DNA of 64,000 nt. Origin: Paraglomus brasilianum (taxonomy: Eukaryota). The translations under genes and the position numbers were made by a program. The stretch's first letter is position 1, and each line of letters begins with the position of its first letter. Location: positions 1-64,000 of the forward strand of contig CAJVPI010000012.1 in the NCBI GenBank assembly GCA_910592345.1, given 5' to 3'. The notes beneath the pieces are model-generated. The model was not told where the DNA came from. It saw only the letters and a list, made by a program, of their open reading frames with translations, and made no database searches. Positions 4,550 to 59,500 of the stretch are shown here, in pieces.

Positions 4550-7168
4550 TTATACATCTTCTTCATCAACATAGTTAGCCATCGGGTCCTCGTGCCTAAA
4601 GAAAAGAGAAGCACAGATTTGGTATTTCATCCAGAAAAAGGAACCGAGTCCAAATGCCTACAAATACATACGATAACTTCTTCAAGCGATAAGCCTCCAA
4701 TTCCTCTTCCGTAACTTCCGTATCGACTTTCGAATCTTTACTCATAAATGCTGAATTATACGGCCGTTTTCGATCATCTGGTTCTTCCTGTAATAGTCTA
4801 GCATGCCTTTTCGCTTCGTTCTCAATCGCCTTTTTCAATTTCTTGGAATCCAGCTGCACATCTCCTTCACCAATGTGCTTCCTCTTAATATGTATATTAA
4901 CATCATCGTCTGTTTTCGCTTTAGTAATACCTTTCCTAAGATTTTCAGTGTGCATTTCAACGAGGGACTTCTTTTCGGTCTGTGCTTGTACTGGTGTCGA
5001 CGTTAGAAGGTTACTAGAAGAGGCGGCTTCGATACCAGCAAGACCAGTACAGTAGGAATTTTTGATAAAGGCACGGCAACATTTGTAACCCCATTTTCCA
5101 TCCGCCCAAAATGAGCCCCAGATTGATGTATGGTTGTTTATATATACTAAAAGAGTATTAGAATACGTGTTAGATTTATCATATGAAGGCGAAAGCCATA
5201 TAGTTTTTTGCTCTACCAAATATCACACGATCAAAATGACCCGTAATTCGTTGGCTTGGCATATGAATCTACTTCGTATTACATTCACGCTCTCTGCACG
5301 ACATCTTCTTGCTTTCGTTACTTACCATCTTCTTCGTACTTGGATTTCGCTTTTGCCTTCTCCTGGCCTTTAATAACCCTTCCTGTCCGCGAATATTCTA
5401 CATAATGCTCTGTCTGAGCAAGCAGCAATTCCTTAGGTGGAACATCCAAATGTTCTTCTCCACCGTAAGTAGCCAAAATAGAGTCCTTGCTAGAATCCTT
5501 GAGCTTCTCTTTCTTGGTTAAATACTCTCGATGGAGCAATTCGCCTTGTGTCGGATTAGCTTGTAAATGAATGTCTGTTCCCTTTTCATAAGCTTGCCAT
5601 GCAAACAATTGCAAATTTGCCATTTGTCGAGCATCGCCCGAGTAACGAACAAAATTGTCACCAGCATACACGGCCTAATGAAGCAAATCGCAGTGTTAGG
5701 AATTAATTAGTTTGTCGACATGAGTTCATCAATATAGCTATTTCTGAATCAATCCTATTGCCATTATAGCTTGAGAAGCGCTTTGCTTGAATAAAGCCAC
5801 TTCTCGTTACCAATGATAAGGTGCATTCGGATTAAACCAGAAACCAAAATTCTATTTTACGAAACAACGGAAACTCACATCCTCAGCTGACGTGTCCGGC
5901 TTGTTCGGATTATCTCGCATAGAACGTGTTTTGGGATCGTAGTACGCAGAGTTAGGATCAAGATTTCTTAGATACTTGGCCGTATCTTCACGAATTCTAG
6001 GGGGGGAAACAAATTCGATTAATAATAAAAAACTTGGAAAATGCAATATATTAACATTATTTCTCACCTAAGGTTTCTGATTGTAGTACGTGTCTTTGTA
6101 TTGACTTTTTGACCAGGCATGTCTGAACTTTCGGCATACTTGTCCTCATCTTCTTCCTCATCATCACTAGAAAATTCGCCGCTAACTCGTTCGCCAGTTT
6201 TTTTGGCAAGCTCTGTCGTGCTTTGTTTTTCGAGCTCGCTGGCTTTTAGCTTGCGACGAGCTTCCTCGATTTTTTCATACTCTGATAATATTACATAAAC
6301 CAATTAGCTCACCCATCCTGGTGCGTCTTTAAAGAGTTACGATATAATGTTATCACCAACCTTCATAAATTTTGGCATGTTCTGCTGGATCATATCCGTT
6401 CCACCGATCTCTTTTTGCATCATAGTCTAATTCGATATCTTGTATTATCTCGTCAGCCTAAAAGTTTGCACCGTTCTGGGTTAGTTTCGTGATTTTAAAC
6501 AGGGACTCATAAATGTCTATCATACTTGAATATCTTTTCCTGTCCATTTCGCACCAAGTTTTCTTGGTCGCTCCACGCAGTCTTTCGTCTTGTGAGTCAT
6601 TGCACCGCAATTCTCACAAGCACCTTTTCGATACCTTGTAGAAGCAGGACCCTATCATACAATTCAAGTTTAGGTAAGTATCAAAATTTATACTTCTAAT
6701 CGTCAACATGGCAATGAAAAGACAATGACTTACAGCTCTTACTCCACGCATATACCATGTTTCAGGTTTGGACACAGCCTCCTCATCCCGAAGCCTTTGA
6801 TGTTTGAGTGTAGGTCCTCCAGTATCAAGGTACCCTTGAAAAGTGAAAAACTCGTTGGTTAACCATAGTCCTGGTAGATCTGCTCTTTCAGGAATTTCAT
6901 CTGATTTCACTTACAAGGCGCTTTGGCAATATATTGTGGTATATGAGGGTTAATATCCCTCCCTTCTTCATCCTGCTCAGCGGGGGCAGTACCAGCTTTT
7001 CTAGCTGCCTCTAGATCCTTCTGTCTTCGATAATCCTCCCGACTGAGTTTTGTGCCTGCAAGCGGTTGAGAATTTGATCAACTATGGGCATATCAGATAA
7101 GTATATATAGACAACGAAGCAGTACCGAATTTTGGGCACTTACTCTGAGTAAAGCCTATTGTTGACAT
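4550..7168 (-). CDS. SLU7: pre-mRNA splicing factor SLU7, multi-exon
   Basis: Motifs [37 protein letters not shown], zinc knuckle [69 protein letters not shown] and C-terminal EDPMANY. ATG at 7168, stop at 4550-4552, GT-AG introns. Confidence 0.97.
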
Positions 7169-7989: not shown

Positions 7990-10040
7990 AATATCATACA
8001 TTGCTAAATAAGATATAAGGAAAGAGAAGATGATCTACTCCAGCTACCTGTTAGAATCACGGAATCCAAGCACCAGATCGACAGAGAGGAAGAGGCGACA
8101 TCAACCAAAAGGGTGAGTCCAGTTGATATATAATTTTGTAAATCAAATCAAATTAAATTGTACAGATAACTGACATATTTATATATGATGAAATCAAGTG
8201 AAAAGATTTAACAAATGTATCACTTGAAGATGATGGCAAAAGTAATACTACCAATGTTGCATATTCTGGAAAAAGTATGGATGATCTTCTTCCTGGCGAC
8301 CAAGCACATTCAAAAAAACCTCTCATGGAATCAAATCATTCTGATAGTTTGCATTCGTCATCATCTGTTCCATCTTCTAATATTAATTGCAAAGGTAATA
8401 ATGATCTTAGGTTTTTGACATTTCCGAAGGAATATAATGGATTAATTTATATGCATCACATGCAGATATCGAGTCTAAATATTACAATGCCAGGAAACGA
8501 ACAAAAATTATTTATTTGTGGGAAGATGCAATTGACAAGATTGATTTTAGAAATTTTTCAAAGAAGGATGTGAGTAAATAGTGTGGTTGCATCTACTGTA
8601 CATTAACTAACTATACTTAATTCTTTTCAGTGGATTTTTGAAAGTTACAATCTTTCCAATGAGTTCTGTGATTTTCAAAAGATTACGATTCAACAGGTCA
8701 AGGAAAAACTGCTCAAAAAATTCTGTAAGTATTGAATTCAACCCGAATTATGGTTTGTGATTTTTTTATCATATTCATTATTTTTGTGATAAAATAGATG
8801 TCTATCAAATATAATGTTGATTGAGCAGATAAAACTGACATACTTATCTTGCGATCTGGCAAGTTGGAATACTATTCGTCGAAGGAAAACATCTTCTTAT
8901 TTGCCATCAGTAGTTAACAATACAGTTCTGGAATATTCATTGGTAAGATTTAATTTTCTGATTGTTAAATTCCAATGCTACAGCACTAAACAATATCTAT
9001 TCTAGTTGTTAAATTCTTTTATGCCACTGGAGGAAATGGAAGGCAGATGGTGCAAAATTTCTCCAGAGTCACAGAACTGAATAAAGAGGATAGAACTAAT
9101 TTTTGCAAATGTCAAATCATATTATGAAACTTGTAGGTGTTACATTTGTTGTTGTCATAACTAATTCGATGCTAATATCTTTTACGGCTTTTTATTAGGC
9201 TCTATTAATAAAGATAACGAAGATACCTTTGTCCACAACACTTTACATAACTTAATCAATGAGGATTTTTCATGACCCAATGTTAGAATTAGTATGGTAA
9301 GTTTGGAAGCATTGCATGGATATAACATTCATTTTTATTGAGTATCTTCTGTATATTTGTGTTAAAAGGGCAAATAGTGAGAGCTCTACTTCAAAAAGTC
9401 GACGTCTTAACAATAAGGAAAAAGTTACTGTTAAAGGTAATAAACCTGATTTTAAAATTTCAACCAATACTAAAGATGAAGTTCTCTTCAGAGAAGTTAA
9501 ACCAAGGGACTCGTCTTCTGTATTGGTCAAAAAAGATCTAGTCAAACTTGCTGAGTTTCAGGCAGGTACCAACCAAGAAATTTGGAAATAGAATCGGGAT
9601 GATTTCTTTTGGTATATGGATATGTAGTAAGTATGCATAATAATTTGGACTGACTTTTTGGTGCATTTATTAACATTTGATTGCATTCATAGGTGAGCAT
9701 ATTCACGTCTACAAGATGGACCTTAATTATGAAGGAATATACAGGATGATCTTGGTTGCAGATGTATGTGTCCCAATTGAACGGGAAAAAATTGTAGGCT
9801 TGCTATCAGTTTTGGAAGTGGTTAAGATTATAGCTGTTTACTACATTTGATGTAAAATCGGCACCAAACATTTTAACATCCTTTTTTTTTTGTGATTTTA
9901 GGCATTGTATTTCCGAACTTTTAACAGTAATTGCCTCTGACATCCCGCCTAGTTCTCCATCACGTTCTTCCTATGGTAGAATGCCTACCCCTTCGCCAAA
10001 ACCTGTCACGGTTGCAATTACTGGTCTGCAACCAACTTGA
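7990..10040 (+). pseudogene. decayed multi-exon gene of the Mucoromycota PD-(D/E)XK-like (Crinkler C-terminal REase-type) family
   Basis: Exon remnants NEDTFVHNTLH, ANSESSTSKSRR..GNKPDFKI..EVLFREVKP..KDLVKLAEF and VYKMDLNYEGIYRM. Frameshifts near 9265 and 9570; GT-AG introns. Boundaries approximate. Confidence 0.6.
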
Positions 10041-10320
10041 TTTTTTGTATATCAATTATCTTATGTATACGTGGTGAAAAAAGATCATAAATGATTTTAG
10101 TAAAGTTTCGCCGAAATTGAGGCTGTGTTTGCACTTTGAAGAAATGAAACGCGCTTCATTTTTGATCAACGTGATATCACTAAGTATTGACGTTTGAAGT
10201 CGGTTAAATTGGTTTTTTATTATATATTTCTTTTTTAACGCTTGACGACGGGCCGCCGCCGAAATTTTTAGTTATACATTTTAAATAAATAATTGGATAT
10301 ATACAAACTACTACTAAAAC

Positions 10321-11010
10321 ATGCAATCCGAAGTTGATTCATTAAAACAACGAATTTCTGAGCTTGAAGCCGAAAAGGTTGAGCTTGAAACCAAGAATGC
10401 CGAGCTTTTAAAACATGTTACGGAAGAGAGCACCAAACGCGAAGCTGAAAATGCTGAGCTCAAAGCCAGGATCGCCAAATTGGAACAGATTGCAGAAAAA
10501 ATACTGAGCTTAAAGATAGAATCACGAAATTGGAACAGAAATAGACGCAGGCTATTACTAATAAACAGGAGCCATCTCCTACAAAAGATATTTCACCACT
10601 TATCGAGAACAATTCTGATGAGGGGAAAGGTATTACCCCCCGATCCCTTGCCTGAAATAGAATATAGCTCAACCTGAATTTTCAACGGAGCCTGAAACAT
10701 CTACAACTTCTTTACCACAAGATATTATCCATGATTCAGCTGAGATCCTTGATTTTGTAGAAACGATGCACAAGGAAAGGATTAGTAGTGAGATAAGAGA
10801 GAGGAACCGGGGAAAAAAACTTCGAGAATCACATAATAACTCCACTGATACAATTCGAAGTATCAACCCAATCGACACCTGAACCTCTGGACTCGAAAAC
10901 TGTGAAAAAGCTTTGGAATCAAAATCAAAATAAAAGCCAGGACAAAACGTCCCAATCGCACAAGAAAAAGGGAACAGAGAATATCGCTCAGGTGATAACT
11001 GATGGCATCC
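10321..11010 (+). pseudogene. frameshifted coiled-coil protein of a family common in Glomeromycotina
   Basis: MQSEVDSLKQRISELEAEK...REAENAELKARIAKLEQ. Coding-like continuation in shifted frames (SAEILDFVETMHKERISSEIRERNR; KKKGTENIAQVI). Confidence 0.55.
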
Positions 11011-11230
11011 ATATTAATATTAAAAGTCTTCTTTCTATTCTACCAGAGCAGTGCGAGAGTCAACAGGGTAGTCGGTCTATTTAAGATGAAGCACATGCGT
11101 GTTTGCACATATGAAAACGCCCACAAAGTAGCGAGTCTCTTTTCCACATAAGATTTATACCACTTGGGAACTTCGGGGTGATTATAACAACCATCATGAG
11201 TTTAACCACCCGATTCCCATATGCAACTAC

Positions 11231-11458
11231 ATCCCTCTTGCGACAAAACCTGTTAGCAAACACAAATACCTTCTCTAATTTATACTCTCACTCGCACTCG
11301 CTTTTCATATATCAAAAATGTCATCTCTCCGACGAAATACAACTTCATCACAACCCTCCATTAAGGCTGGCCCTGCCGCTCAAGAACTGATCGACCCAAC
11401 GCGGCGCTCACGCCGACAACGAAACTCTGGCCGCATACCTCGATCTAATAACGAATGG
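11231..11458 (+). pseudogene. truncated inverted paralog of the HMG gene (5' UTR plus N-terminal codons to NNEW)
   Basis: Aligns by eye to the reverse complement of 14928-15197. It has indels, no intact start context, and ends just before an A9 run. Confidence 0.9.
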
Positions 11459-14315
11459 TAAAAAAAAAGTTACAAATTTCTCTCAAAAACGTCTTGTTAG
11501 CAAATTTAGAAAACACGAAAGTAAACATGAATTGGTCCAATGTTGAATAACAACGATAGTAACAGGCTCTTGTTCTTGGAGAACATCAGGACATCGAAAT
11601 CAACGTTTGATATTTAACTCATTGACTATCACTATTAGATGAACACGTTGAAAACTAAAATTATCTTTTGCTAATTACAAATTAGCCAGTCATTGTAAAG
11701 TATATATTCTTTTCCCTTACCTTCAGCAATATCCATTAGGTGGTTCACCAACCTTGTGAAAATCGCTATCGACTCCAATCAACACGAACATGGCACTGTT
11801 TTCAATGCCACGCTAATAATCCGGCGCTATATGCTGAAATTATGCCGAGTCCATGTAGCTAGCGAGCTCTATGTTGGGAGAAAATTATTTGTAGCTGTCA
11901 ATGAATAACAAATAAAATTAGAAAATGGTACAGTACAAACATACTAATGGCGACAACGGTTATTATAATATACCTTACGTAGACCCGTACGTTTTTTCTT
12001 TCGCCGTAAATTGTCGCTGGGTACAAAGTGCATCCATTTTCTTCTGTCAGTATCCTTCAAATTCTATTAGTAGACGTGTAAAATGAATACCAATGGCGAC
12101 AACGATTGATTGTGACATCAGGCAAGTAAGTATATTGTTTGTTCCATAAAATAGATATGAAACATTAGGACGAAATTATCACAATTGCACGCATAGTTAA
12201 TAATAAATCGATTAAATTTGCATAGCCTTATTCAACGATTCATTCTATATGCCAATACGAACAGTAATACTAGTAGTATACGGTACGGTATTGATATAGT
12301 TAATACTCAATCACTAAATCAAATACGATAATAAAATGGCAGTAAATGCTTACATGGACTCTCGTTAAGACGCTTCAAAGATAAAAAGTCTCAGATCTGT
12401 GAATCAAAAATGAGACCTAGAAGGTTTACGCGTATTCGTTTATAATCCATATTAACGAATAGAATCTTCTTTCATCGATTTTCAACGACTACTATAACAA
12501 ACAGACTGGTATGTGAATAGCACTTTTTCGTAACTTTGTTTGCATTCGGTTAATGGTTCGTAAAAGATACCTCAATACGCCCGCTTGCAAGACATTTTTT
12601 ATAAAAGTCTGTTACTTGATGTATAATTGAATTGCTCCAAGTTCTTTAGCTTGCAATACAGAGGGTGGGTTTGAGCTCATTTTCATACGGTCACTCGCTC
12701 CTGCCATTTTTGTAGGTTACCCGATCTTTATTGTACAATATGAAATTCTTCCCGCTGGTTCTCATAACTCTATAGACCATGGGAAAAGTTTCTTCGGAAT
12801 ACAAGCCGTCAACCGAGGATGTTGGAAAAAGGTAACTCGCACATACTTAAACGTCTACTGAATCTGTTGCTTATTATTATGTTACCCGGACGCCAATTTT
12901 ATTATATACGACATGTTGATGTTAAATATACAAGTATCGCTCACCATGGTACTTATTGGTTTGTTACACAAGATACTTGTAAAGTACCAAGGTACAGCGT
13001 TTATGCCTTTGATTAGTATGTCCCCCATACACATTCCTAAAACCCCTCGACTTCTTCGGCAGCCGGCTCATAATAATAATGCTCTCCTTCAAATATCTAC
13101 AAGAAACCATCTTTTCTTGTTGGATTAATCAATGTAATGTTATGTTAGTATCATCTAATCTCTCACCAACTCATCATCCAAACATTCGGGTGCGCCCCCG
13201 ACAAGTCCCCTTCCCCCATCAATTTCATCCCACGCCTTTTTTTACCAATCGGAAACTGTACACAAGAGGTTCACCTGCAGCAGTCAACTGTAAGTAATCG
13301 TTAGAGCATACTCATTTCCGGATATATCCCCATTCATTATTATATCGTAAGACTTCATATTATTCAGTAGACATTTGATAAATGTGCAGTGTCAAAAAAA
13401 GACTCTGAGTCTACTAAGTTGCAACGCCGAGTCTTCTTGGTTGACAGTACGTACTGCAGTACTTTTTGTAACAACTTTTCTGTGCAAACAAACGTCTCTT
13501 TGAGGAACATTCCCGAGTACAATTTTGTCGTCACATCGCGTGTGGCTTGCATGCACTAATACTAATTCGTAACGAGTGGGCATTGATAATCATAACAGGA
13601 ATTACCATTGTGAAATAGAGACACTGTGATTGGATCCTTTTTCTTCTGGGTACATTGATATACTACAGCGGGGGGAGGGTATAAGTAGAGTACTACGCAA
13701 AGTACAATATTAATAATAACAACTAAAATTTATAGGTTTTAGTATACAGTTGTAATGTATTTTCGTCATTTTAATGAATAAACAGTCCCAACTGAAAGTC
13801 GGTTACCGCTTGAATACAATTAATTGCAAATATGCTAGCATACACAAGTTATCGGCGTAGCCCGAAATATCTACAAATTAAATATATTGTCCGTGGTGCT
13901 AACGTTGACAATTACGGAAGAGAAGAACGCATTGTCGTAGAGGAGGAGAAGCTACGATTTGTTCAAACATACGGTATGGGCATTAATTATTAGCAACTTA
14001 ATACTTATAGCGTAATGTTGTTCTTTATTTAGTCACGCTTGAAAGATAGAGTATTTTGTCTAGGTAATATGTATGAACAAGGTTTTTGTTCTTGACTATA
14101 TAGATGGCACATATGTCTGCCCCTGTAAATATATCCGATTACGTTAATCCGTACGTTCTTGTAAGTGTAATTAAAGAACCAAAGTCTCAAAAAAGCAACC
14201 ACGAGTTTGACTACTTCATAATACTACTTTTTTTTATGGTTGATCGAACATTTGCGACTTAGTAATTGCTACTGTAAAAAAGGCTAATCCTCATGCCGTA
14301 CAGATAAACTTTCGC

Positions 14316-15122
14316 CTAATAACTCGGTTCAAATTGTCTACTACTGCCATCGAACCACAAATTGTTGACGTAGCCATAATTATCGTACGGAAGTAAATAT
14401 ACTGGATCCATTTCTATGTAATTTGGTTCGTCAAAATAGACCAATCCTTCTGGGGGCAATTCCACCTCCACCTTTACGTCTTCACCCATTTCGCAAGTGG
14501 GGCTTTCCACTTCCACTTTTACGTCCTCCTCCTTATTATCATTCTTCACATCATCGTTCTCTTGCCACTCTCTAAACCCATCAAAGAAAATAAATCCCCC
14601 GCCCCCTTCGCTTTTGCATTTGTTTTGCTTCTTCGTCTTCTTCTCCCGAGGCTCGTATTTATAATTGGGATACTTCTTCCGATGTACTATTCTCGCCAAT
14701 TCGGCAAGTATCTTGAAGAACTGCTTAACACGCGGCTCTTCGTTCTCCCAGCGTGTCTTTGCTTCTTTTGAATAAATCTTTAACGTATCCCTTGTACGAC
14801 GGGAGCGCCGCACGGCTTTGTTGTTCGGTTTAGTTATAGACGATGCTGCTTCTTCCTCTTCCTCCTGTTTTATCGGCGCTTCTTCTTCCAATTTCTTGGC
14901 TGCATCTAGGTTCCTTCTATACATGATCCATTCGTTATTGGATCGTGGTATGCGATTAGAGTTTCTCTGTCGACGTGAGCGCCGCGTTGGGTCTATGAGC
15001 TCCTGAAGCGGAAGTGCCAGCCTCAGTGGAGGGTTGTGAAGAAGGTACTGTATTTCGTCGGAGAGAATATTTTTTTCCGTAATAAACAAGTGAGTTTGTT
15101 CATCAAACAGTTTGGATGACAT
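14316..15122 (-). CDS. MATA-type HMG-box transcription factor, intron-less
   Basis: RIPRSNNEWIMYRR ... SKEAKTRWENEEPRVKQFFKILAELARIVHRKKYPNYKYEPR, plus the N-terminal PP..L.L.ELI.P motif seen in AM-fungal HMG expansions. Confidence 0.92.
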   Translation of the reverse strand: MSSKLFDEQTHLFITEKNILSDEIQYLLHNPPLRLALPLQELIDPTRRSRRQRNSNRIPRSNNEWIMYRRNLDAAKKLEEEAPIKQEEEEEAASSITKPNNKAVRRSRRTRDTLKIYSKEAKTRWENEEPRVKQFFKILAELARIVHRKKYPNYKYEPREKKTKKQNKCKSEGGGGFIFFDGFREWQENDDVKNDNKEEDVKVEVESPTCEMGEDVKVEVELPPEGLVYFDEPNYIEMDPVYLLPYDNYGYVNNLWFDGSSRQFEPSY

Positions 15123-15243
15123 TTTAATAGAGTATAAATTAGAGAAGTACAGGGGAAAGTATTTGTGTTTGCTAATAGGTTCTATCGCAAGAGGGATAGT
15201 TTTTTTTGTTTGATATTTCTCTCACCGATCCGATATCGTTGCC

Positions 15244-15251
15244 TTTATATA
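15244..15251 (-). promoter_or_regulatory. candidate TATA box of the HMG gene
   Basis: TATATAAA on the minus strand about 125 bp upstream of the ATG at 15122. Confidence 0.4.
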
Positions 15252-15652
15252 CGCATCGGATTACGTCTCCCATTGACATTATGATCAAATCTGATCTGTT
15301 ACACTTATAACCATTAATTCCTAAAATTAGGCTAATTACTTTGGCATTATAATCATATATCGCTATTGTTATAGCATTGTCGGAGCAACCTTGCGTATAT
15401 CCCTATCGTTACATTCTTAGTTTATAAGAGCAGACAAAGACAAACAGTTGAAAAATATTGTATCCTGTGTAAATATTTATGTTTACTGGGGTTCAATTTT
15501 TTAGTCTCGAGCATGAGTGTGTGTTTCAGAAACCTGTAACAAAGGCAATAGCGCCATAAATATTGCAATAAAGAATAATACCATACGGACAAACGCATTA
15601 TTATTGTTCTTGAGCTTTCTATTATTAGAACGGATATTCAACCCTATAATAT

Positions 15653-15767
15653 CAGTTATCCCATCCTATATAGTCACAACCTCCTTATAGTCACGCGCTT
15701 TTTTGGAGCAGTCACACTCCTCTATCATCACTGACTTAGAGCGTGACTATAAGGGGGGAGGCTACGG
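15653..15767. mobile_element. degenerate MITE related to the 4032-4172 element
   Basis: Shares ctatatagtcacaacctc..tata and gcgtgactata.aggggg with the 4.0-kb MITE. Confidence 0.55.
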
Positions 15768-18700
15768 TCTCGTGACTTCCGGGAGTTCTGAAATTAAAAT
15801 TACTTGTGGCACACAAAACTTTTGATGATTACGTCATACATAAAATATTGATTCTTTGTTAAGCCATTGGAACTAATCAGTCTAAAGTTGTCACTCGCTG
15901 CACTTGCTGTCTCGAGCTATCATCAAGTCACGCCATCAACAAAGAACTTGACAATCTGTTAGGCATAAAAATAGTATATTATTTATTTTTATTTATTTAT
16001 TATTTATTTATTTATAATTTGCTTAAATGGATCCCCTGAGGTTAAGGTACCACAACATACATATCCGTGGGTATAAATCACGGGACAGCAAAAAAATTTG
16101 TAACCTGTTTAAGTTTAATTATTATCATGCAAGTAATTACTCCCTGAAATGTCTTTATCATTATTGGTGCAACTGTATTCGCAATCTAGAATAAATCCAT
16201 CGATAACGCCATTTTTAATCACGTATTTCCACATGCAGTCGGTCTGTGTCATAAGTAATCGACAAAATTAAACGGTGTAATAACGGGTAGAGTTTACAGT
16301 AAAAAAGCTATCGCTAAAGCGTAATACTAAAAGCTAATACTAAAACCGTTTACTAGTGCAAACAAAGTTATAAATTATGCTGTACGCAAAACTGCACGAA
16401 ATGACTATATAAACTCAACATATATCCCGAATATACCATGTATGTATGCCTGAGCTATACACCGGGTATACACGTGGTAAACTCAAATACGTTTCGATGT
16501 TTAATATCTTTTGATCTGTGCACGCTATTCTTTGTCTCCGTAAAGCATGGTAATTTTGTTTCTTATTATAGTCAGATAGGCATTGCTATTTCTGCTGACA
16601 TACGCAAATTAGATGTGACTCCATTAAATCTTTAATAGCCTTTACCTGTAAAATTAGCCATACTACCGAACTTGCAGATTATCTAAACAAAAGTCTCTAT
16701 GCATAAAATATAGGTAGGCACATGTAACAATTGTTGGACAACGCGATAAACGGCCATCGAATTAGCCCTTGCATAATTTATTCTTGTTGACCCAAACTGC
16801 TCACAAACGAATCTTATGTCGGAGATCATTCTGTGTGATGGCATGACAGGGTGCATAAAACTTTGTCCGTGAGATAATAATCACGTTCAATATAAATTCA
16901 GTCTATCAGGCGTAGAATAAGTATCTGGTGATCAACAGCCTTCTTACACTGCATGAATGTATTCTATTCCGGCATATTTGGCCTTGTTGGCCAAAATTAG
17001 ACAATGAACTTTGCAATTGACACGAAAAGAAGTTTAGTATTTGGCGCTTATTAAGAAGGCGTGTTTTGTTACACGTTTAGTGTATTGGCTTGACTTTGTC
17101 ATATTCATAGTTTTCCTTATGTTAGATATGTACAAAAAAATTTTCGATACTTGGTCTTACCAAATAAGTGTACGGGGTTATTCAGTTGCAATACGATTAT
17201 CAGAAAGAATGTTAGACGCAGCATACAGCAAAAGTGGCCGAAATTATTATACTATATTCGCGGAATTTCCTACGTAGTAATAATAGTACTAATACTTGTA
17301 ATTTTATAGAACCCAAATATAGCTTAATTGCCGACTTTTTTATCAACTTTTTGTAGCAAAATATCTTTATGCTCTTGTTACTATCATTACATCACAGATG
17401 TCTCGCGTTTAAGCCATTTACCAAGTTTTTGAGCGCAAACAAGCATTACGCCTTTTAATACTTTTGACCTTAAACTTGTGTGGGGTACTAAAACGTTTGT
17501 CGATGCTATGCAAAAATAGAGCTGATTAATCGTTCGCAACGTTTCAGGAATGAATTTTATTTCGCCGTTCTCGATAAACTATTTTTTGAAAAATCCAACC
17601 AAACAAAATGAGCCACAAACGACAGCGATAATACTGTACGTTTACGTCTCGGTAGGAATGTCGGGAGCCAACTCGGGTTCGCAGGAGACAAGCACTATCT
17701 CAACGCACGATTTAAAGTTGGATTTTCATACATTCAACGAATAGATATGAAAGCATTCGTGTGAAGCAGTGACGTAAAAACTTTGCCAAAGTCGATAACT
17801 TTATCAACACTGACCCTCATATTTACTACCACAGAAAATGGCTAGTCAAGTAAGTGTTTCCCGTATAAGCTTTATGCAAATAGTATAGTGCCAAAAGTAT
17901 TTTCAAACGCTATGGACAAAAAATGTTCAGATGTCATGTTTTACTATAACAATGCTACTCTACATAAGTCAGCAAGTATCCTCAAAAGTAACAGATAACA
18001 CTCCTTTTAATAATGTAGGGTTATTCAGACAGACTATCTCAAAAGTTGACTATGAAAGTTCTTCCAGAGTTGGCAGGATTGTCTGCAAAATTGCACATAT
18101 GTATGGGGGCTACTTTGAGGAAATCAAATAGTTTTTTAAATAGTTGTATTTAGAATCATCAAAATAAAGAATTGAGAACAAATCTTTTCAGCACTTCCAC
18201 GTATTCTAGAGTAAACTTGCCGTTCCAAACAAAGTATGCATAGGTTCGATAACATAAGTCACAAATTAGTTGTTAGTTATTGTATGCAAAACTGTACCAG
18301 TATTCCAAACCCAAAAGTATAATGGATAAGAGACGACCGCTGAGACATGTATTTGACCGATTTTCAGTATACAAACTGATACTAAAACTCTAAAAAGCCG
18401 TTAGCTTTATTAAAAGCTCCAAATCCCTTAATATTAAGACGACGGGCCATTCTTATTATTATTGTAGTCCTGTAAAGTATTACGCTTTAACTACTTTTGA
18501 ACGCGTTCGCCCTTGCAATTATTCACAGTTTTGTTAATTAAGGTGTTCGTCCAACTTCCATAGATTATGAACATAATTTAAAATTACAATATCATTTTCG
18601 AAATAGTCAGACGCGTCGAAAGTCTATATTAGTAATATACAGTAGACAAATGTGAAACGCCTTTGTAAGTTCATCAAAGTGAGACAGCATGGAAATTTTT

Positions 18701-19282
18701 TGTGCTACTATATGTTACAACCCCTTGTCTCAAGAATTTATAATTTCGTCCATTCCTATTTGAAATTCTCAAACAAATTCCGAACCAAAAGCATATGGTG
18801 TGCAAACATCACCCCGAAGGTTATAATTACAACCTGTTTATCAGAAATATAGACCAGTTTGTCTGGAACAATTCCATTATTGAGACCATGAATTGGAATT
18901 TACACAAAAATCCCTTGTCAATCGAATAGGAATTTTTTTATTTTTGGAAGTCATTGTCTGCCGTATTACTGTTGTACCTCAGTTGGAGTTCTGGACCGAT
19001 TCTGGACCAAGCGTCTGGGTTTGGAACTGAGACAATTGAGTTCTAGACTGATTGAGGTTCTGAACTGAGACAGGTCCCCAACTCAGACACAACATTTTTA
19101 CTATGCACGGAACAATACTGTTTGAATGTACGTGTCGAAAACAATGATGGAAGTACATTATTTCTATAAAGCCGCAGTTCAGCGAAGTCACAGTATATAT
19201 GGGGCATGCTGCAACAAAACCAGACAAAGACTATGTGAGTTAAAATGGTTGGTGTGGCCGAAAAATTAGCCAGTGACTGATA

Positions 19283-19309
19283 ACAGTTTTGCTTTAGTGG
19301 CAAAACTGT
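19283..19309 (+). terminator. terminator-like hairpin at the left edge of the code-4 island
   Basis: acagttttgc-tttagtg-gcaaaactgt: 10-bp perfect stem with 7-nt loop, starting at a TAA that ends a short code-4-compatible frame. No clear U-tail. Confidence 0.3.
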
Positions 19310-19457
19310 GGTTAAGACATAAATTTGGAGACTATCTTATAGCAAATACGACTGAAATTTAACTTTATTTTAATTAAAACTGCACAGATAATTATGAAAA
19401 ATTAGGATTATATCTATATAAAAATATTAATATGAAACTCATTTACATTAATTCACC

Positions 19458-19790
19458 ATGGAACCAAAGAATTACAGTACAATTAGAAGTATTTTAAAGA
19501 AAGCTCAAGGAGAAAAAATTGCTACATATATTTTTAAAATCAATGATACCAAAATCCTCGAGAAATATCTAGATAAACTTATGAAATCTATCAAGAAGAA
19601 CGAAAAATAAAAAAATATATTAACAACAACTTATGATGAACCAAGAAAGAAACGGAAATATAAAGCAAAGAATTTAAATAATTATTTTCTTTTTATCAGG
19701 AGTATTATTTGACGAATAGCAAGAGCAATATTAGTATCAGAATTCTATATTCTAATCTCATATAATTTACTTATTTTTTTGAAAAATAAA
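19458..19790 (+). pseudogene. decayed small AT-rich ORF with a hydrophobic C-terminal segment, code-4 compatible
   Basis: MEPKNYSTIRSILKKAQGEKIATYIFK..., then in shifted frames YINNNL(TGA)(TGA)TKKETE and IIIFFLSGVLF. Confidence 0.35.
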
Positions 19791-20396
19791 AGTCTGAAAT
19801 TTTTCCTTAGCTTTTTCTTTCTGTTTTTTAGGTAAAGCTGGTAATTCTTTGGTTGCTAAATAATCTCTTCTGCCTATTTCTTGATCTTTATTTAACAAAC
19901 TGTTTTCTAATCACTTTATTCGATCTATAAGCCTGCCTATTTCAGCATTGTGCTTTAACACTGTTTCAGGCATTTGGCGCTTTCTTCGCCTCACAGCTGC
20001 ATTCCAGTGCTTTCTCGCTCAATTTCCACTTCATTTTTTAACTTGCTTCTAATTCTTCTTTTTCTCAGTAAGTAAAACTAAAACTTTTTGTGCTTCCTTA
20101 CCGAAACTTTTAACAGTATTTTCCGGAGTAAATCCCTCATTAAAAATAACTTTTCCAATTTCAAGTCCATTCTTTTCTGGGTAGCTTACTCAACCCTTGT
20201 CAGGTCAAGTAAATCTTTCTAAAGTTCTTAAAGTAGTACCAGTATATTCTGAACTTTCAGTAAGGCTGTGAACAGCATTTCAAATTCTTAGTTTAAAGTT
20301 CTCTTCTTTATCTGCTAATTGTTTCTTTAACTTTTCATTTTCTTCTAATGATTCTTTATTTCTCTGTTCGAGTTCTGTTATTATTATGTTTGCCAT
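19767..20396 (-). pseudogene. MRE-like hypothetical protein (code 4), frameshifted
   Basis: From ATG 20396, 115 codons run to TAG at 20049-20051 with three TGA and no TAA/TAG (..FKLRI*NAVHS..ERFT*PDKG*VSYPEK..). The shifted C-terminus reads RIK*LENS..KELPALPKKQKEKAKEKFQ. Confidence 0.65.
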
Positions 20397-20591
20397 GCTT
20401 TTCTTTTTTATTTTTAATGCACTTATACCCTTTTTATGAGAGTATATTAAGTATATAATTATTTTAATATTTCTTTTTATTTAAGTTTTAAAAATTAAAA
20501 GCGGGAAAGCTAGCAATATTCACTGAAAAATTAGATAAAGAACTTAATGACAACGAGAAAATTAACGAGCATTGAAATGATGGAGAGGATT

Positions 20592-22232
20592 TTAGTCTAA
20601 ATTGCCAGTATAGGTTGGTCTTTGACAAGTAATATCCTTGAATTCATCTCTAACAAATGGGCGGGTATTATGATAAAGATATTCTTACCTTTTACAATCC
20701 AAAGGAGGAGGAGTTAGTACGAGGATGGAAAAGAATTTAATTTCTTAGTAATTTCAGAAACACTTGCTTTTCTAGTTTTTAACAAATTAAATTTAGTATA
20801 AGCACCATTAGCAATCAGCTGAGCTTTGACAACTCCAGGTTGAGCTGCTTCAAATAGAAAATGCTGATATTTTTGTAAACCATTCAATTTCTTAAAGAAA
20901 ATTCCCAACACAGAATTAAGATCTAAGTATTGAAAGCCTTTTCCATTGTCGTAGCACTGAGCTTTGTTTAATCCTGCTGTACTTGATTTTTTCATAACGA
21001 TCCACGCAATCTACTGTTGTCTTTCTATAGAGTTTTTTAATCAATCCATCACACTTGAATTTAGTATGTCCGGGTACCATGAAATTCAATGGTTTCATAA
21101 TAACCACAAATTATTAAATACAGGTAAAATCAAATGGTAGCATTATTTTTATTCTGACCACCCGCGTTATCGCAGGTTTAAATTTTTTTCGCCTTTATTC
21201 AATCTCTTAATTCCATCGAATACCATGCTCAGCGTTTGCCATTAGGACCTTTGCCGATAACATCAAGAACGTAATTAATTTGTTCGCGTACTGCTTTATC
21301 TTGAATACTTGTTGGTCGAATGGGGCACGTAAACGTTTTGCGCTCAATCGTAACTGTAACAATAATTAGCTTTACCTCTTGTTATAAAATGCTCATCTAC
21401 CAATTTCCTCTGCTGTTCTGCTAATTTCGTATTTTTGTTGTGATAATTTCTCTCTAATTTAACCTTAACTAAATGTTCTTTGAATTTTTTCAGTAAGTCT
21501 CTCGCTTCTTCTTTCTTACGAGCATTATACTGTAAGCCACTCCGAAAATGTTGGCACGTGTCACATAAATCCGTTCGTGGACTCATAATTTGAATATAAG
21601 GTGTTAATTGGTACCATAACTTGCGGAATGCATCATATTTTAACAATTCTAAACTGCTATCGTTTTTGATACCTGCAATAAAATTACGATAAACCGATTT
21701 GTAACTCGTTTTAGCTGGTAAAAGCGTAAGCAATTGAGTAATGCGATTAACATTTCTACCAGGACTTGGTAACCCATGAATTTCAGCATGGTTTTCGAGA
21801 AAATTTTTTACGGCGATAGCAACGGTTATATCAACGGCACTTTTTTTACATTACCATGAACGCGCGGTATTATACCATTCGTCGCTAGGTAATTTCTGAC
21901 GTTTTCGAAATGGGTACGACCAATTCCTAACATATTTTGATACGTTTTCTGACAAAGAGGCGCATTGCAATCTCAGTAGTAAAACGTTCTTTATTAGTAC
22001 GCGCTTTCTTTTTAAGACGTCGGCTGGTAGTTATTTCTCCACCATTCATTGCTTTCAGCTGGGCCATTAAAAATATACCTTGTTCGGATCTAGAGAGAGC
22101 TTGGAACGCCTCACGTAATTCGGCAAACCTTTCTCTCGGCACCTTTTCTGAGCAACCACATTTGCAACCTAATTCCAAGAAACGTATAGCTTTTTCATAT
22201 TCAGTCGAACCATTATAATTGTAATTTTCCAT
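20592..22232 (-). pseudogene. Sola-like DDD transposase, intron-less, TGA at predicted Trp sites, several frameshifts and deletions
   Basis: Motifs CKCGC, PRVHGN, FLENHAEIHGLPSPGR, FRKLW..PRTDLCDTC, SYD(TGA)AQNV, GKGPN, CDNAGGQNKNNATI(TGA)FYL, FMVPGHTKFKCDG, YQHFLF and RPFV..EFKDITC. Confidence 0.7.
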
Positions 22233-23537
22233 ATACGGGTAATCCTATATATTAGTTTTATCAAGTTTATATTTTATACTCTTTTATTAAAGCCCTATAT
22301 ATATTGTATATATTTTTCTTATCACTTTGTATTAATTCAGTATTTTTGAGCCTCCAAGAAATGTATGGTCTGAAATTTTATTATTGTTTTTATGCTAATT
22401 ACGTCAGAGAATTGACTTGTCATTAAACAATTTTAGCACCATATATTTACTTTGGTATAAAGTCATTAATGTAACAAAAGACAATCTCTCTCATCTGCAT
22501 TGCACGATATCTTACCATGTCGCTTATCTCGACGAAAGCATCGTTATGGTAACGGTGAAGAAAGTAGAAAGGTTTTATGTATTCCGCCCTCTCTAAGACA
22601 ATTGGATATGTTATGTCACGTGATACAAGAATCGGCGGCGGGCTGCGACGTAGGAGTAAGTCCACTTATTTTAATTGATTGGCACATGGTTAATGGTTAC
22701 TATTACTATTAAGCATGCTTTTTATTGGCTAGAAGGGCAGCGATGTTAGCACTTGTATCACATGAGTGCTAGGGAGAGTTCTCGCGTAGTACTAGCCTCG
22801 CGCCTTTCGTTGACAGGTATCGTTTACGCGAAAGAACGGTCGCTTCCTGAATTTACCTGCTTCTACTCCTGTCTTTGTCCTTTCAACTCTGTTGCCTGTG
22901 TTTTCTCGCAATTTTTGTGTCCACGGTATCAACGCGCCTATTGCATTTTTCGTGCCTCTGCCTGTTCTGTTCGGTACGTCTCACACCCTGTTACTAATTT
23001 CGACGTTCTCTACGATCATGATCTCCTCCCACACTCGAACTGTTATCAATTAGCATTTTTCATACGCTCATATTTTTTCCAGTATCTTCACAGTTACTTT
23101 AGAAGGCATCATACATTATCCAATACCTGAAATGCAGCTTTCTCCTGAATGTCGCAACTCCATAAACTTTTCAGGTGACTGTTGTTTTTCTTCCGATCAG
23201 TTTATAGGCTGTTGGTTTTAACTTCTAAATTCAAAATATAGATTTTTGGGAAAGTATCGATGAGCCGTCTCTACAAAAATTTTTGGTTTTTCGCCTTTCT
23301 GCTGGTGATTTGAATGATGAGTCTGAAGAACATCACCGATACATTACTGAACTGAAAACCATCAAGAAATATTATGCTGAAGCCTCTGAAATGGGTAGAA
23401 ATATTTCTAAATGGATAAATCGGTTTAAGGTAAATGTTTATTTAAGTGCTTTGGGCCGTCGTTACAACCTGAGTACACTGACTACCCTGCAGAGTGCGTC
23501 TTTGTAGTGGGAATCGGTGCGTCCTCTCTGGGAATCG

Positions 23538-23820
23538 GACGTCTCATTACGTCTTTGAAAAAGTGCAAATAGTGCAATTGCAATTTGATATGAAGGTAAA
23601 TGGATGCATTCTTGAATACGTTCAAGATCACGGTCCACTCGTTCGAGTAAGAAACCAGTTCAGACTGAGAATCAATCGCTCTGGACTGAGGGCTATTTTC
23701 TATATACGAATGGTAAGTATATCTTCGCTTCGCATGCATTTTTGCATGTTCGAAATGGCAATAACTAAGTTAAAATGTTATTAATACCTACTTGGCAAAA
23801 TTTCAAGGGCTAGAATTTAA
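23538..23820 (-). repeat. inverted copy of the IKS1 upstream region, exon 1 and intron 1 (source 56431-56752)
   Basis: Long near-identical blocks. The ATG context is deleted and the donor GTACGT is changed to GAACGT. Confidence 0.92.
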
Positions 23821-23827
23821 CGCATAC

Positions 23828-24321
23828 TACACAGTCAGCCTCGATAAGCCGGCCAACAGGAGCTGGTTCTGGATGGCCGGCTTATCGAGGCGACCGGTTT
23901 ATTGAGACCCACGGGATACAAGATATTTAATTACACAATTTAAATTAAATTATTATTGTACATGATACTGCTCTAATCGTATGATCTAATGATATAATGC
24001 TGCTCTAATCATATAATTATAATGTAGTGACATGTATCTTGGATTAATCGTATGACTGTAGCGCTTTGATTGTTGATTGCAATACATTTTAGTGATTTGA
24101 TTTATATATCGGTTCGGATTATACGATTTAATAACGATATATATATAACATGTTTATTTTAAACGAATGATAATTGCCGTACAAGTTGTGATCAACCAGT
24201 TAAATTTGACAAACACTGTCACATATTAAAAAATCACGTGGACCGGCTTATCGAGGTACATTCAACTAAGACCCGGCTGGAGCTGTTGGCCGGCTTACAG
24301 CTTATCGAGGCTGACTGTGTA
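23828..24321. mobile_element. MITE, pogo/Tigger-type
   Basis: Perfect inverted ends tacacagtcagcctcgataagc / gcttatcgaggctgactgtgta, with internal ccggcttatcgagg subrepeats. Confidence 0.88.
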
Positions 24322-25849
24322 TTACTATTACGGCGTATTGATTAACATTAACAACTCATTGCCTCTACTCTCTTTGAAATCTTAGTTCCACGAAATCAGA
24401 AACCATTATCTTCCAGTGACTCTTAACTAGAATTAAAATAAGCAGCCTAAGAGCTCAATAGACGCATAAGTAAAGACAGGCACATTGTTTTGGTGTTATT
24501 TCCAGATATATTTTATTTTAGCACGAAAGACAAATATTTATGATGATATCACAAGATATATCCCTTGTGCCATTTAAATGAGCCAAAAGCAAAAGACATT
24601 GTTAAAGAATTTGTGGTTGAAAGATTTTCATTCAAGATATGATAAGGTAAGTATTACCATATTTTTTTCTTTACTCAAATCGCATTTATTTTATTTCAAT
24701 AAACACACATATTAATATGCGTGAAGCTTACAACGAAAATAGCAACAATCGCCATAATTGTCGATTAAAAAGCATTGATCGATTAAGCATTATAGAGCAA
24801 GATTTGTAATTGACCCACACCAACGAAAATCATATAGTCTAGTGACCTATAATAAAGGCCACATATAATCTCATATATCTTCTGCTTAATTTGTTTTCAT
24901 CGTGATTGATTGATTGATGATCAAGCAATTATGGCTGAGACGTTCAGAATATTCGATCTTCCTACACTTGAAATATGTTTCATCTCACGACACAGACCTG
25001 GCTATCTGGAGAAGAGTTGTTAAACGTAAAACCCAAATTGTAAAAACGATTGTGGCATGGTAAGTCGTAGGGTAAGTAAGCTGTTATAATATGGTATTGT
25101 TCAAGACTATGCAATACTAACGGAAATGTCAAAATATCAACATGGTTAGAGTATTGTTACGAGTATTAGTATGTAACCCTTTGCTTATAACTGCGCGCTA
25201 ATGTTTATTATTTAATGGTTATTTTTACCTTTCTAAACAAGTGTTTAATTATCGATACAACAGTATAACAGGCTGTATAATATTGTAAATGTCAACAAAC
25301 GAACAATTAATACGAACAATTATCGGAAGCCGACAATAGCAATTGTAATAAGTATCAGATAATAGTATTGTTTATTACAGTCTTAATTGTATGACTACTG
25401 TACTGAATATGTGCGGTTAACGTTTGTCATAATAATATATCAGCGTAAGTATGGTTCATTCGTTGACTTAGTATAAAGCGTATTCAGAAAAAAGTTGGAT
25501 ACTATGGAAAGTAAGCATTTCCAACTGGTGTAAAAATGATTGATTATGAGCAATATCTTTATCCTATTGTATGTTGTCCTTGCTATCACGCGTACGTGAC
25601 ATCATTATTAAATTACGACAATTAAGTCTTTCGCCAAACACAGTTTGTAGCAGTCGCTGTTATTATTATGTTTGAATACGTAAGGCAAAAAGTATTCTCT
25701 ACGTTACGATGGTTATGTAACATGTTTTGAGATTTACGCACCTTGCAATTGCATTATTAGCGTACTCATCGATGTCAAGCTCCAAAATAAGATTTTCTTT
25801 TATATTTGCTTGCAAACACGGAATGTATCAATGCAGTACCGGCGAAACG

Positions 25850-26030
25850 CTGTCACCTCACGCAATTACTCTCGATAGTATACTCCAGTTCTGCAAAAGT
25901 TTGGCTTCTCTGATACGACTTTGTTCTGATTCTGCCACAAGTCAGATATTTTCTTATCTTGACAAATCATTCGTATTCCATATCAATAGTAGTTTTATCT
26001 AAGCATGTTTTCTTCAAAATAAATTTCGCC
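25850..26030 (-). mobile_element. possible pogo/Tigger transposase N-terminal remnant
   Basis: Fragments LDKTTI..KYL..SRIREAK/FAELEY resemble the psq/CENP-B HTH region; heavily decayed. Confidence 0.3.
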
Positions 26031-55577: not shown

Positions 55578-56599
55578 AAAGCTGTAAGACTGTTTGTAGA
55601 GAATGGAGGAATGGTTGATTCTTTCCTACAGCCCTCACTTTTGTAAGGTAAATTACCATCATTAAATCGGCGAACACAGGATTCATTGATCTTGTATCTG
55701 TATGTACAGCATGGCTTTCAAATTGGCGAGAGCAAAGCTATCCCATATCTCTGGCATAATTAGATGGAAATGATAGCATTGTTGGCATTCCATTCTTCAA
55801 CTAAACTCATTTACGTTTTGGATAAATTCTTCCTTCAAACGCTATTTATCCTTGCAGGTTTTTTATTTGGATTATGTAATCTTACTATTTAACAATAAAT
55901 TGCGGCCAGTATTTGCAGTGTCAACGAAATTTTCACATCAACATGGAAAATTAAAGATCGATAATGGAATGTGAATGTTTTTAACACATGAAGAATGATA
56001 TCAGATGCGGGACGAGTAACGTAAACTTAAATCAAGATAAGTCTGGTAACGATGAGGTAATGATTTGGGATTGAAATAGAAGACAAATATGACTAGAAAT
56101 ACGGGATCACGTTTACATGATCGCAATGCAATAAAATGCTGTTCATTAATTATCATGTAGTGCCTGAAATGGAATCTGCTTGCGTATTAAAACAGTATTA
56201 TCTTTTGCTAGTGTAATTAATGGCGTTCTTTGTTAGTTACACGAGAATTATGTTATCTAATAACGCTTTTTGGCATACTGAATATCAATTACGTCTTGAT
56301 GTATTACTCTTAAGACGCGGCGAGAACGATTGTGAGGCACGTGCAAAAACTGTATTATGGAGTTACACCTCATATATACTAATACTAACGCTGTTAATCA
56401 ATACGCCGTAATAGTAATTATAATAGTAAATTAAATTCTAGCCCCTGAAATTTTGCTAGTAGGTATTAATAACAGTAACATTTCAACTTGGCGTTATTGC
56501 CATTTCGAACATGCAAAAATGCATGCGAAGCGAAGATATACTTACCATTCGTATATAGAAAACAGCCCTCAATCAGGGGCCTCTTACAATACGTCCGCC

Positions 56600-59500
56600 A
56601 TGAGCGATTCTCAGTCTGAACTGGTTCCTTACTCGAACGAGTGGACCGTGATCTTGTACGTATTCAAGAATGCATCCATTTACCTTCATATCAAATTGCG
56701 ATTTCATCAAAACATCACTATTCGCACTTTTTCAAAGACGTAATGAGACGTCAGGTCAGATTGTTCTGTACAACCCTTCCGATCGTCAAGTCTCAGTAAG
56801 ACAACTACCTCTTACGAGAACTACTGCTGTCACTTCTCCAAGAGTAAGCTGGATAAATCAAGTTTTTGCGAATTCAAATGGATGCGCTATTAAGTGAGGT
56901 TCTTCTGTTAGTTTTTGACATCATCACAATTTTGCGCATTATGTCATCGACCTTTTGAACGTCATGGATCAGAGGAGAGCAACGAGGTAATGATATTTAT
57001 TTATCTTAGCTTGCTACCGTTACTGCTATCGAATAGCTACTTGTGATCTTAACTCTTGTGATATTTATCCTTTGCTTGCCTCACCACTATGTAGCTTCCT
57101 CGACCAGACTTCATCCACAGAAATTATTTCCGTCTTTTAGAGGACACCGAGAGGCAATCAAGGTATTCGGTCTATTCGAAATTTACAAAGCAGATCCGTC
57201 CGTAGTATTCGCAACACGACTTTCTGTCTTTATAGGCCATCATCTTCAAGTGGACAGCCACCACCGCCTACCCAAGAATATGCTTTCCAGCCTCCCCCCG
57301 ACGATCAGAGGTGGCATTTGTCCGAAAGTTCATTTAATCAGGGGTATTATGAGAGGTTTTTTATTGAAGAACAGAAACTTGGTAGGGGATTTCGCGGGAG
57401 TGTTTATCTTTGTCAGGTTGGATTATTTATATGGAATTCTGTGTGGCTATGGAGATGAGCCAGACGTGATTGAATTTACATGCTCTTTTCTCGTAGCATG
57501 TCCTTGATAATGTACATCTCGGAGAATATGCTGTCAAGAAGGTTGTTGTTGGTAAGTAGGATCTTTGTGAGTTATTACAATAAGCTTAATTTTATTCCCA
57601 TTTAGCGTTCTCTAACAATTAACAATGCTAAAAATTATTGTTACTATCGATTTCTTTATAGGGGATAACCATTCCTGGCTTGTAAGAATGTTACGAGAGG
57701 TCCACTTGCTCGAAAAACTGCACCATCCAAACATTATAGATTACAAACATGCTTGGTTAGAATATCACCAACTCACCAGTTTTGGTACGTTGTGTGTAAT
57801 TTCCTCTATCCTCTGGTAGGTTTCTATGTCCATCCCGATTCAAACCAAGTTACACTTCCCTCATATGCACGTATTCTCTTTTCTTCTTTCACAAGGCCCT
57901 CAAGTACCATGTTTATTTATTCTAATGGAATGCGCAAATGGCGGTAATCTCGAAGAATTCATAAACATTCAAGCGTCACCCATCGACACACATGCACCAA
58001 ATGAGAATCTCACTCCAAGAGAACGAGCTATTCGCGAACGTCGCTTGCGTCAAGCGAGTTTCCTAAATGACGCGCGATCATCTGCCACTCCACGACCGGC
58101 CTATTCTAGACGAATCCTCCAGTTAGATGAAATTTACGCTCTCTTTGTGGACATTTGTGCTGGATTGATGCACCTTCACGATCAAGGCATAGTCCACCGA
58201 GACCTCAAACCGCCGAATCTTCTCCTACACTACTCTAATCCAGCTCACAAAACGGGTATTCCGAGAGTGCTAATATCTGACTTTGGAGAATGTGAGATTC
58301 TCGACCAGTTAACTGAGCGAGATAGAACTGGCGCGACGGGGACTCTGGAATTTATGGCACCTGAGCTTTTGACTGTAGATAGTACTGGAAAATATTTGAA
58401 GGAATATTCGCCAAAGTCAGATATGTGGTCGTTGGGGATTGTACTTTATTACCTTTGCTATTCGCGGTTACCGTATCGACAGATTGAAGACGTGGATCTG
58501 TTGAAGGATGAGATCTTGCACTTCAGGAAGTTAGTAGAGAGAATTATCAAAAATTAGATTAGTTTCTTACTCAAAGGGATCCTTGCTATTGAAATTCGGA
58601 TAAATTACTAACGACGAGTGTTGTTTATCTAAATTAGTGTTCCGTTTCCAGATAGCGACCTATCTACAAGCGCAATTCGTCCAATTCCAGCACAGTTGAA
58701 GGCGCTTATATCAAAGTTACTTGCGATTAATCCAAAGAACAGACCATCTTGTGATGAGATACTAAAATTGGTTGCGGAGGCAAGACACTCTTACGCGGCG
58801 CCAGCAAATAGTGCATACCCGAACGCAGTAAGATTCTTCGTATTTTACTCGAAACAATAAGAAGTTCTTACACGTGACTTATCTCTCATTGCTTCGCTTT
58901 CAGTCACCATCGTCATATGTTGAAGTAGTCAGCTTGTCTCCTCCGCCGTCCACGATACCATTATCTTCTTCCAATGCACCCATTTCGTCTTCACCACCAC
59001 TATGCCAGCACATCCCCTCAACTACGTCTCTCCCAGCACAGTCACTAGTCCAACGACGTCGTACGTCTTCTACAGATGACAGCGTACCATTAACACAACC
59101 AAATGAAGGTATAACAACCGAGTCTCTCAGAAAATTGTAAAGTTACTAAGTTACGTGATGCCCAACATATCATATAAGACTTATCAAAGTATTTCTCTTG
59201 TTGCGCAGATGACGACATCGATGATATCAACGACATCGATGATATCAACGACATCGATGATACAGATCGGATGTCTGATACTTCAACAGCAGTAGTACGG
59301 ATTTTACCACCTGCTACTCGACGAGGAGTTTTTAGTGTTGTGATTGGGAAAATCCTGACGCGTTGTGACTTGTGGAGAATCATTAAAGGATGTATTTTTC
59401 TAGTTAAGGTTAGAATGATGGGTTGTACTGGGACTGGAATTTGAAAGTATACAACTCACTTTCATATATTTGATTAGGTCATAATGTGTTTGTCATGGTG

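Follow-up and report, generated by a model that had tools for sequence, protein, structure and literature searches.

The DNA analysed here (the window) comprises the first 64,000 nucleotides of contig CAJVPI010000012.1 of the fungus Paraglomus brasilianum. Positions 19201 to ~22296 are occupied by a DNA transposon of a multi-copy family, in a copy that has decayed and is dead at this site. Besides one terminal repeat, this copy has a transposase of the Sola1 type (DUF7869), two passenger genes in operon-like arrangement and a small convergent open reading frame (ORF) (Table 1). The family is a real and unusual Sola1-like transposon written in mycoplasma code and widespread in the nuclei of arbuscular mycorrhizal (AM) fungi. 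A preliminary description of the window had proposed DNA of Mycoplasma-related endobacteria (MRE) at 19225..22400, and these limits are corrected here.

Table 1. Features of the transposon copy in the window.
Feature	Positions	Strand	Evidence
ATAT tetranucleotide, candidate target-site duplication paired with 22297-22300	19197..19200		AWWT tetramer before 4/4 complete termini seen (window, L002 twice, L012)
Transposon terminal repeat, 29 bp, begins GGGGCA, sole copy in window	19201..19229	+	27-28/29 identical in L002 (twice) and L012; 1 window match vs 0 expected
Small convergent ORF, ~88 amino acids (aa) when intact, without Trp, basic at the C-terminus; disrupted here by frameshift and deletion	19432..19680	+	Seen in 10/26 loci
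Passenger gene 2, first codons only, remainder deleted; intact form Cys-rich with coiled coil, ~200 aa	19741..19761	-	Alignment to L002
Passenger gene 1, coiled-coil orphan, 233+ aa when intact; 4 TGA (Trp), 6 insertions or deletions (indels)	19767..20396	-	Alignment to L002
Sola1-type DUF7869 transposase pseudogene; 3 TGA (Trp); 12 indels vs L002, 9 frameshifting	20601..22232	-	PF25273 via intact L002 copy
Leader upstream of transposase; similarity to other copies stops here; without second terminal repeat	22233..22296	-	Copy comparison

The intact form is represented by the metagenome locus L002, which is 81% identical to the window over 2672 bases and has fungal-type ORFs on both sides. It encodes, in order, a 586-aa transposase (4 TGA, 1 TGG), passenger 1 (6 TGA, 0 TGG), passenger 2 (3 TGA, 0 TGG), the small convergent ORF and the terminal repeat. 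The window copy has the same gene order and the indels of Table 1, and it has lost nearly all of passenger 2; the proposed decay by frameshifts and small deletions is thus borne out. A promoter scan gave a result at chance level.

The seven in-frame TGA codons described earlier are all minus-strand TGA. Those of passenger gene 1, W39 (20280), W64 (20205), W69 (20190) and W172 (19911), align to Trp in intact relatives, as do W87 (21973) and W311 (21344) of the transposase; the TGA at W402 (21130), likewise a conserved Trp position, was read directly because the alignment had slipped there. The 19767-20048 frame has two more TGA, which lie outside the true frame. At 20396-20052 there is indeed a frame of 115 codons that contains three TGA but neither TAA nor TAG; its last ~12 codons are out of frame past a 10-bp deletion at ~20087 in passenger gene 1. 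No such frame arose in 1000 dinucleotide shuffles of 19751-20500; when the entire 3.2 kb was shuffled, 20 of 500 trials produced one. The reported AT-richness applies to 19201-20600 (GC 0.285) and not to the transposase part, where GC (0.355) equals that of the flanks (0.354 and 0.357).

Five conserved Trp sites of the transposase, followed through 10 copies, give 41 covered cells with 22 TGA, 17 TGG, 1 CGA, 1 misalignment and no TAG or TAA; in this count one TGG cell is the window W402, TGA by direct reading, and the identical L010 and L025 count twice. Seven transposase frames of 459-586 codons lack TAA and TAG and are open only under code 4, and each contains 20-25 Gln codons one step from a stop. 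The passenger gene richest in TGA has nine in 268 codons. Purifying selection acts on all four ORFs. The ratio of non-synonymous to synonymous divergence (dN/dS) of the seven transposase frames is 0.09-0.17 in 20 of 21 pairs (one pair is identical), at dS up to 1.38; it is 0.19-0.56 for passenger 1, 0.16-0.59 for passenger 2 and 0.05-0.18 for five copies of the small convergent ORF. Private changes in the near-identical cassettes, a count that leaves out the more distant L010, comprise 22 synonymous and 24 non-synonymous changes and no stops (ratio 0.20-0.26). The match of TGA sites to conserved Trp, the exchange of TGA with TGG and the purifying selection confirm that TGA encodes Trp in this element. 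The element calls for a translation system in which UGA has long been read as Trp.

The surrounding window is fungal nuclear DNA in which the genes for arrestin, cytochrome b5/acyl-CoA dehydrogenase, ribosomal L11, beta-lactamase, cupin and raffinose synthase are split. TGA serves as a stop in the host, since its L11 and beta-lactamase ORFs terminate at this codon, the L11 domain ending two residues before it. Under the code of the host the element is untranslatable, as had been proposed. Eighteen host ORFs contain 52 TGG in 4122 codons; these ORFs are TGA-free by definition and provide no test of the code.

Relatives were obtained by scanning metagenome contigs with a passenger gene 1 pattern, which gave at least 25 loci from at least 597 pattern matches; the loci are biased to passenger-bearing copies because they were found through this gene. 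DNA similarity to the window continues into the transposase in 15 of 25 loci, and the gene order of the window element recurs in independent loci. Intact relatives in soil-metagenome contigs adjoin standard-code fungal genes. TGG-using fungal-type ORFs occupy the 5´ flank in all four loci that have one, with kinases in three (L002, L023 and L025). Directly upstream of the transposase stand different host kinase or Crinkler-like genes in three loci and differing host-type N-terminal parts in seven named fused models. The idea that these upstream genes form one conserved passenger was rejected, since their proteins share only weak similarity. The small ORF as exon 1 of the upstream kinases found no support, with no match among the proteins collected.

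All named relatives of the element come from AM fungi, and the contigs that carry them measure 248 kb to 1.19 Mb in some cases. Twenty named gene models found by the transposase, an independent sample, kept W87 in 2 of 13 cases, W311 in 1 of 16 and W402 in 3 of 12, and otherwise skipped the site or stopped; the same models keep W135 and W214 in 11 of 16 each, and the median over 354 invariant positions is 0.75. Fungal gene models place false introns over these TGA codons, which is a systematic annotation error. In the third clade of a 36-row tree, 9 of the 16 long-contig proteins examined begin just past W135 and 4 just past W87, as a TGA stop would cause, to judge from the proteins. The least-gapped models, from Geosiphon, Ambispora, Funneliformis and Dentiscutata, show 83-93% identity over the best-aligned stretch. 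Dentiscutata model P0058, a partial model on a 1.9-kb contig, is 93% identical to L002 and retains all four Trp sites that it covers; TGG-only sisters therefore probably exist. The observed/expected CpG ratio is 0.05-0.13 in the second clade, compared with 1.2-1.3 in the window clade. CpG content simply tracking the flank was rejected as an explanation, since L011 does not fit.

The intact L002 transposase belongs to PF25273/DUF7869 (E 1.3e-16, 61.2 bits against a Pfam cut-off of 26), and the window fragments alone gave no Pfam score. Its core was compared by eye with the published Sola1 profile (PMC5751038 supplement) at profile positions 1-30 and 108-124 (47/124 positions); it matches at both ends and covers the same ~124-residue span, and P0110 agrees with the profile in its PGH motif and in the spacing from the first Asp to the Pro. 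With two poor predicted structures (mean predicted local distance difference test score 43), a Foldseek search bearing on the RNase H fold gave no match at E 0.001, and a sequence search of the PDB returned nothing relevant. A 4-bp AWWT target duplication is reportedly characteristic of Sola1. At the transposase end, similarity between copies stops ~60 bases upstream of the transposase start, and the ATAT at 22297-22300 sits inside an AT run and has no counterpart in L002, L011, L023 or L025. The paired terminal inverted repeats of Sola1 were not found: the 64-kb window has one terminus, and no partner lies upstream in these four loci, where the 5´ flanks span 1.7-3.0 kb. In L002, a second terminal repeat with a small ORF occupies 5838-6348; it faces the first in head-to-head orientation at a distance of 330 bases and has a splice-donor-like site at its end.

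The element is a multi-copy transposon with many insertion sites. Summed contig depth, which is no copy number, reaches 9,900-26,000 over the transposase in X1 (flanks 81 and 50), 33,000-65,000 in X3, 880-1,430 in the soil run X5 (flanks 2-4) and 180-650 in X6; X1 and X3 are one sample, possibly the source of the assembly. Summed depth over passenger 1 is ~5-12 times that of the left flank. Over the terminus (19201-19229) it is 102,000-184,000 in X3, compared with 116 in the flank, and contigs leave the terminus into differing flanks in X5 (10 contigs), X7 (5) and X8 (7). The right junction is bridged with no differences by contigs spanning 22223-23609 (X1) and 22234-23609 (X3). At the left junction, a soil-metagenome contig of X8 enters the terminal repeat by five bases and one of X7 by one base; no contig with 31 bases on both sides, and no empty-site contig, was present among the matches listed. 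Inside the element, contigs identical to the window reach depths at the level of the host (101 and 103, against flanks of 81 and 50). The five bases at the left junction come from an independent run, and the bridge at the right junction from one sample. Nuclear residence is supported by the fungal-type ORFs that flank the other copies and by the AM-fungal gene models, some on long contigs, that skip the TGA sites.

The passengers look bacterial. The gap between passengers 1 and 2 is 1-13 bases in 8 of 8 loci, and L005 (1-2403), a contig entirely in code 4 and likely an MRE fragment, carries a passenger-1 homolog among TGA-only ORFs beside a bacterial DUF2442 gene (E 1.8e-9), without a transposase. 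Their spacing and this context, which is the only bacterial code-4 gene context among 25 metagenome loci (2.4 kb, passenger 1 only), make an MRE link plausible for the two passengers. The C-terminal motifs of the passengers presumably resemble those of MRE orphan proteins. The proposed MRE origin is retained as plausible for these genes; no named hit is an MRE protein, and the other half of the element is a transposase of a eukaryotic family. A profile of passenger 1 found 149 relatives; passenger 2 has 356 homologs, of which the 120 listed lie on contigs of at most 8.1 kb. In L002, L003, L006, L010, L022 and L024 the passengers are modular mosaics, with N-terminal, middle and C-terminal parts swapped in frame from one copy to another. 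The small convergent ORF matched no Pfam family above the cut-off, and its Atlas leads were unnamed clusters only (score <=0.82). Viral contigs held no relative, and plasmids and phages gave no match; a GC-rich phage contig that matched the terminal-repeat pattern, without a transposase, was taken as chance.

The window holds a dead nuclear copy of a Sola1-type cut-and-paste transposon, and we consider it somewhat more probable than not that its family is translated in MRE, from where repeated insertion into host chromosomes is predicted. Judging from sequence, MRE are the likely translating home. AM fungi harbour MRE (PMC12306442). Annotation of MRE uses table 4 and includes kinases derived from Glomeromycotina (PMC10507103), and MRE contain many mobile elements (PMC4916391). 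A eukaryotic Sola1 element would have entered MRE or an MRE replicon, after which TGG would have drifted to TGA and MRE genes would have been captured. Copies would then arrive in host nuclei as DNA or as transpososomes out of lysed bacteria. The nuclear TGA copies would make no transposase and might spread in trans, through rare TGG-only sisters or MRE-made enzyme, before decaying; MRE moving between hosts would bring the element across distant fungal genera. Only tentatively, and with somewhat less than even chances, we extend this to a two-kingdom cycle in which the element would be selected in the endobacterium and amplified in the fungal nucleus, ferrying genes both ways (from MRE to host, and host kinases to MRE) and between distant genera.

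Several observations weigh against translation in MRE and repeated transfer. A summed depth several hundred times that of the flank is much for repeated one-way arrivals, and P0058 is the sole helper candidate. No named hit is an MRE protein, most hits being nameless and MRE genomes lying outside the search. No copy was seen in a code-4 chromosomal context: L005 lacks a transposase, and every long-flanked copy is in fungal DNA. A weak scan of GTDB for passenger 1 with exact 8-residue patterns gave one unrelated locus only, which at 37% identity in a 63%-GC genome was taken as chance. Two start codons are preceded by a conserved TAG|G, and basic stretches resembling nuclear localization signals are present, which gives the element a eukaryotic look. 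The CpG loss of the second clade is the pattern of methylated nuclear repeats and fits the flanks of L023 and L025, although not that of L011. A CpG-methylating mollicute could equally deplete CpG. AM-fungal repeats carry CG methylation (PMC8647823).

Much of this would suit a purely nuclear element in a fungus that itself reads UGA as Trp through a suppressor tRNA, context-dependent readthrough or UGA-to-UGG RNA editing: the flanked copies are all nuclear, intact and abundant, selection still acts at the tips, CpG is depleted in one clade, the hits bear no MRE label and the leader looks eukaryotic. We nevertheless judge such recoding, the main rival reading, unlikely. Host genes terminate at TGA, a single passenger contains as many as nine TGA, no tRNA was found in 14 loci or the window, and Rfam gave no match in four loci; the operon-like gene spacing and L005 suggest a bacterium. 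A-to-I editing prefers UAG, and the lack of TAG at Trp sites therefore counts against editing. Less probable again is translation in another code-4 replicon of these fungi, be it the mitochondrion or its plasmid, a different Mollicute or an unknown virus-like element. Such a compartment would account for the absent MRE label, and UGA is Trp in fungal mitochondria; however, the mitoviruses of G. margarita lack UGA according to the same source (PMC7082362). The passengers are not mitochondrial-like, the DUF2442 neighbour is bacterial, and viral contigs, phages and plasmids had no match.

The single endosymbiont-to-host insert of the preliminary description, a one-off passive transfer of MRE chromosome into the fungal nucleus, agrees with code 4, the AT-rich passenger part and the host-level depth of the window-identical contigs. 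It is not borne out and is largely refuted by the terminal repeat with many flanks, the transposase of the eukaryotic family PF25273 and the gene order recurring in independent loci, which leave it very improbable. An assembly chimera of host and MRE contigs has slightly less still to be said for it. The left junction is unbridged by 31 bases on each side among the matches listed, and X1 and X3 may be the assembly source; yet the right junction is bridged, the X8 contig crosses from the left flank into the terminal repeat, the element occurs in fungal DNA elsewhere and the window copy is decayed. That this is an ordinary dead fungal transposon with TGG-to-TGA changes as neutral nonsense is refuted. 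Transitions do predominate among the differences of the window copy, and the sister P0058 uses TGG, but neutral nonsense does not yield 41 Trp cells without TAG or TAA, seven long frames without another stop despite their Gln codons, and the low dN/dS of the transposase.

The element resembles Sola1 transposons, which are reported in Rhizophagus (PMC5751038), in its core profile match by eye, the AWWT before the terminal repeat and its abundance in AM fungi. It differs in that its family opens only with TGA as Trp, in its two bacterial-type passengers and convergent ORF, and in the lack of a second terminus in any copy examined. The host kinase and Crinkler-like genes directly upstream of the transposase recall Pack-type transposons adjoining kinase genes in R. 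irregularis (PMC8647823); those belong to another superfamily. The host-derived genes and insertion sequences (IS) of MRE (PMC4916391, PMC10507103) offer a parallel in Glomeromycotina-MRE gene traffic, table 4, many mobile elements and fungal kinases. The available parts of those reports, in contrast, describe host-to-MRE transfer and bacterial IS families, with no eukaryotic transposase and no return route, and bacteria-derived genes in PMC5982333 are said there not to stem from known MRE. Nuclear inserts of endosymbiont DNA, as from Wolbachia to its hosts, are known in which symbiont-code genes decay in host chromosomes. The window copy shares this decay; unlike those inserts, it represents a self-mobile unit that occupies many insertion sites and has a motor gene of a eukaryotic family.

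No description of a transposon with TGA as Trp in AM fungi was found in the literature, in a search that stopped short of the 2015 MRE genome, MRE mobile-element and Sola/DDE classification papers and part of the PMC10507103 supplement. A transposase of a eukaryotic superfamily, selected in a code foreign to the host nucleus, needs either a bacterial phase or a hidden fungal recoding, and either would be new. Genes are known to pass between AM fungi and their endobacteria by a route that lacks an explanation; the element is a candidate vehicle for this traffic, as well as for the spread of transposons in asexual fungi. The competing readings are distinguishable with existing MRE assemblies and RNA data.

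Other repeats and genes were observed in the window. The end of a second, unrelated high-copy repeat lies at 19056-19100, 100 bases off the terminal repeat, with a summed X3 depth of ~135,000 and many differing flanks behind 19094. A small element resembling a miniature inverted-repeat transposable element occupies 23825-24324, with 25-bp inverted ends (96% complementary), internal 18-bp inverted repeats and raised X3 depth. A dispersed repeat occurs in inverted orientation at 23538-23820 and 56431-56752, with 82% identity across 323 bases. A standard-code mariner-type transposase fragment with a Mos1 helix-turn-helix is located at 35-742, and a short second remnant at 17763-17864. An HMG-box-like ORF, recognized by eye and without a Pfam hit, lies at 14316-15221, with a partial copy (71% identical) at 11231-11458. 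Finally, a Crinkler-type kinase at 43120-43821 is low in CpG (0.21) while the rest of the window is undepleted, which suggests a foreign or repeat-borne origin.

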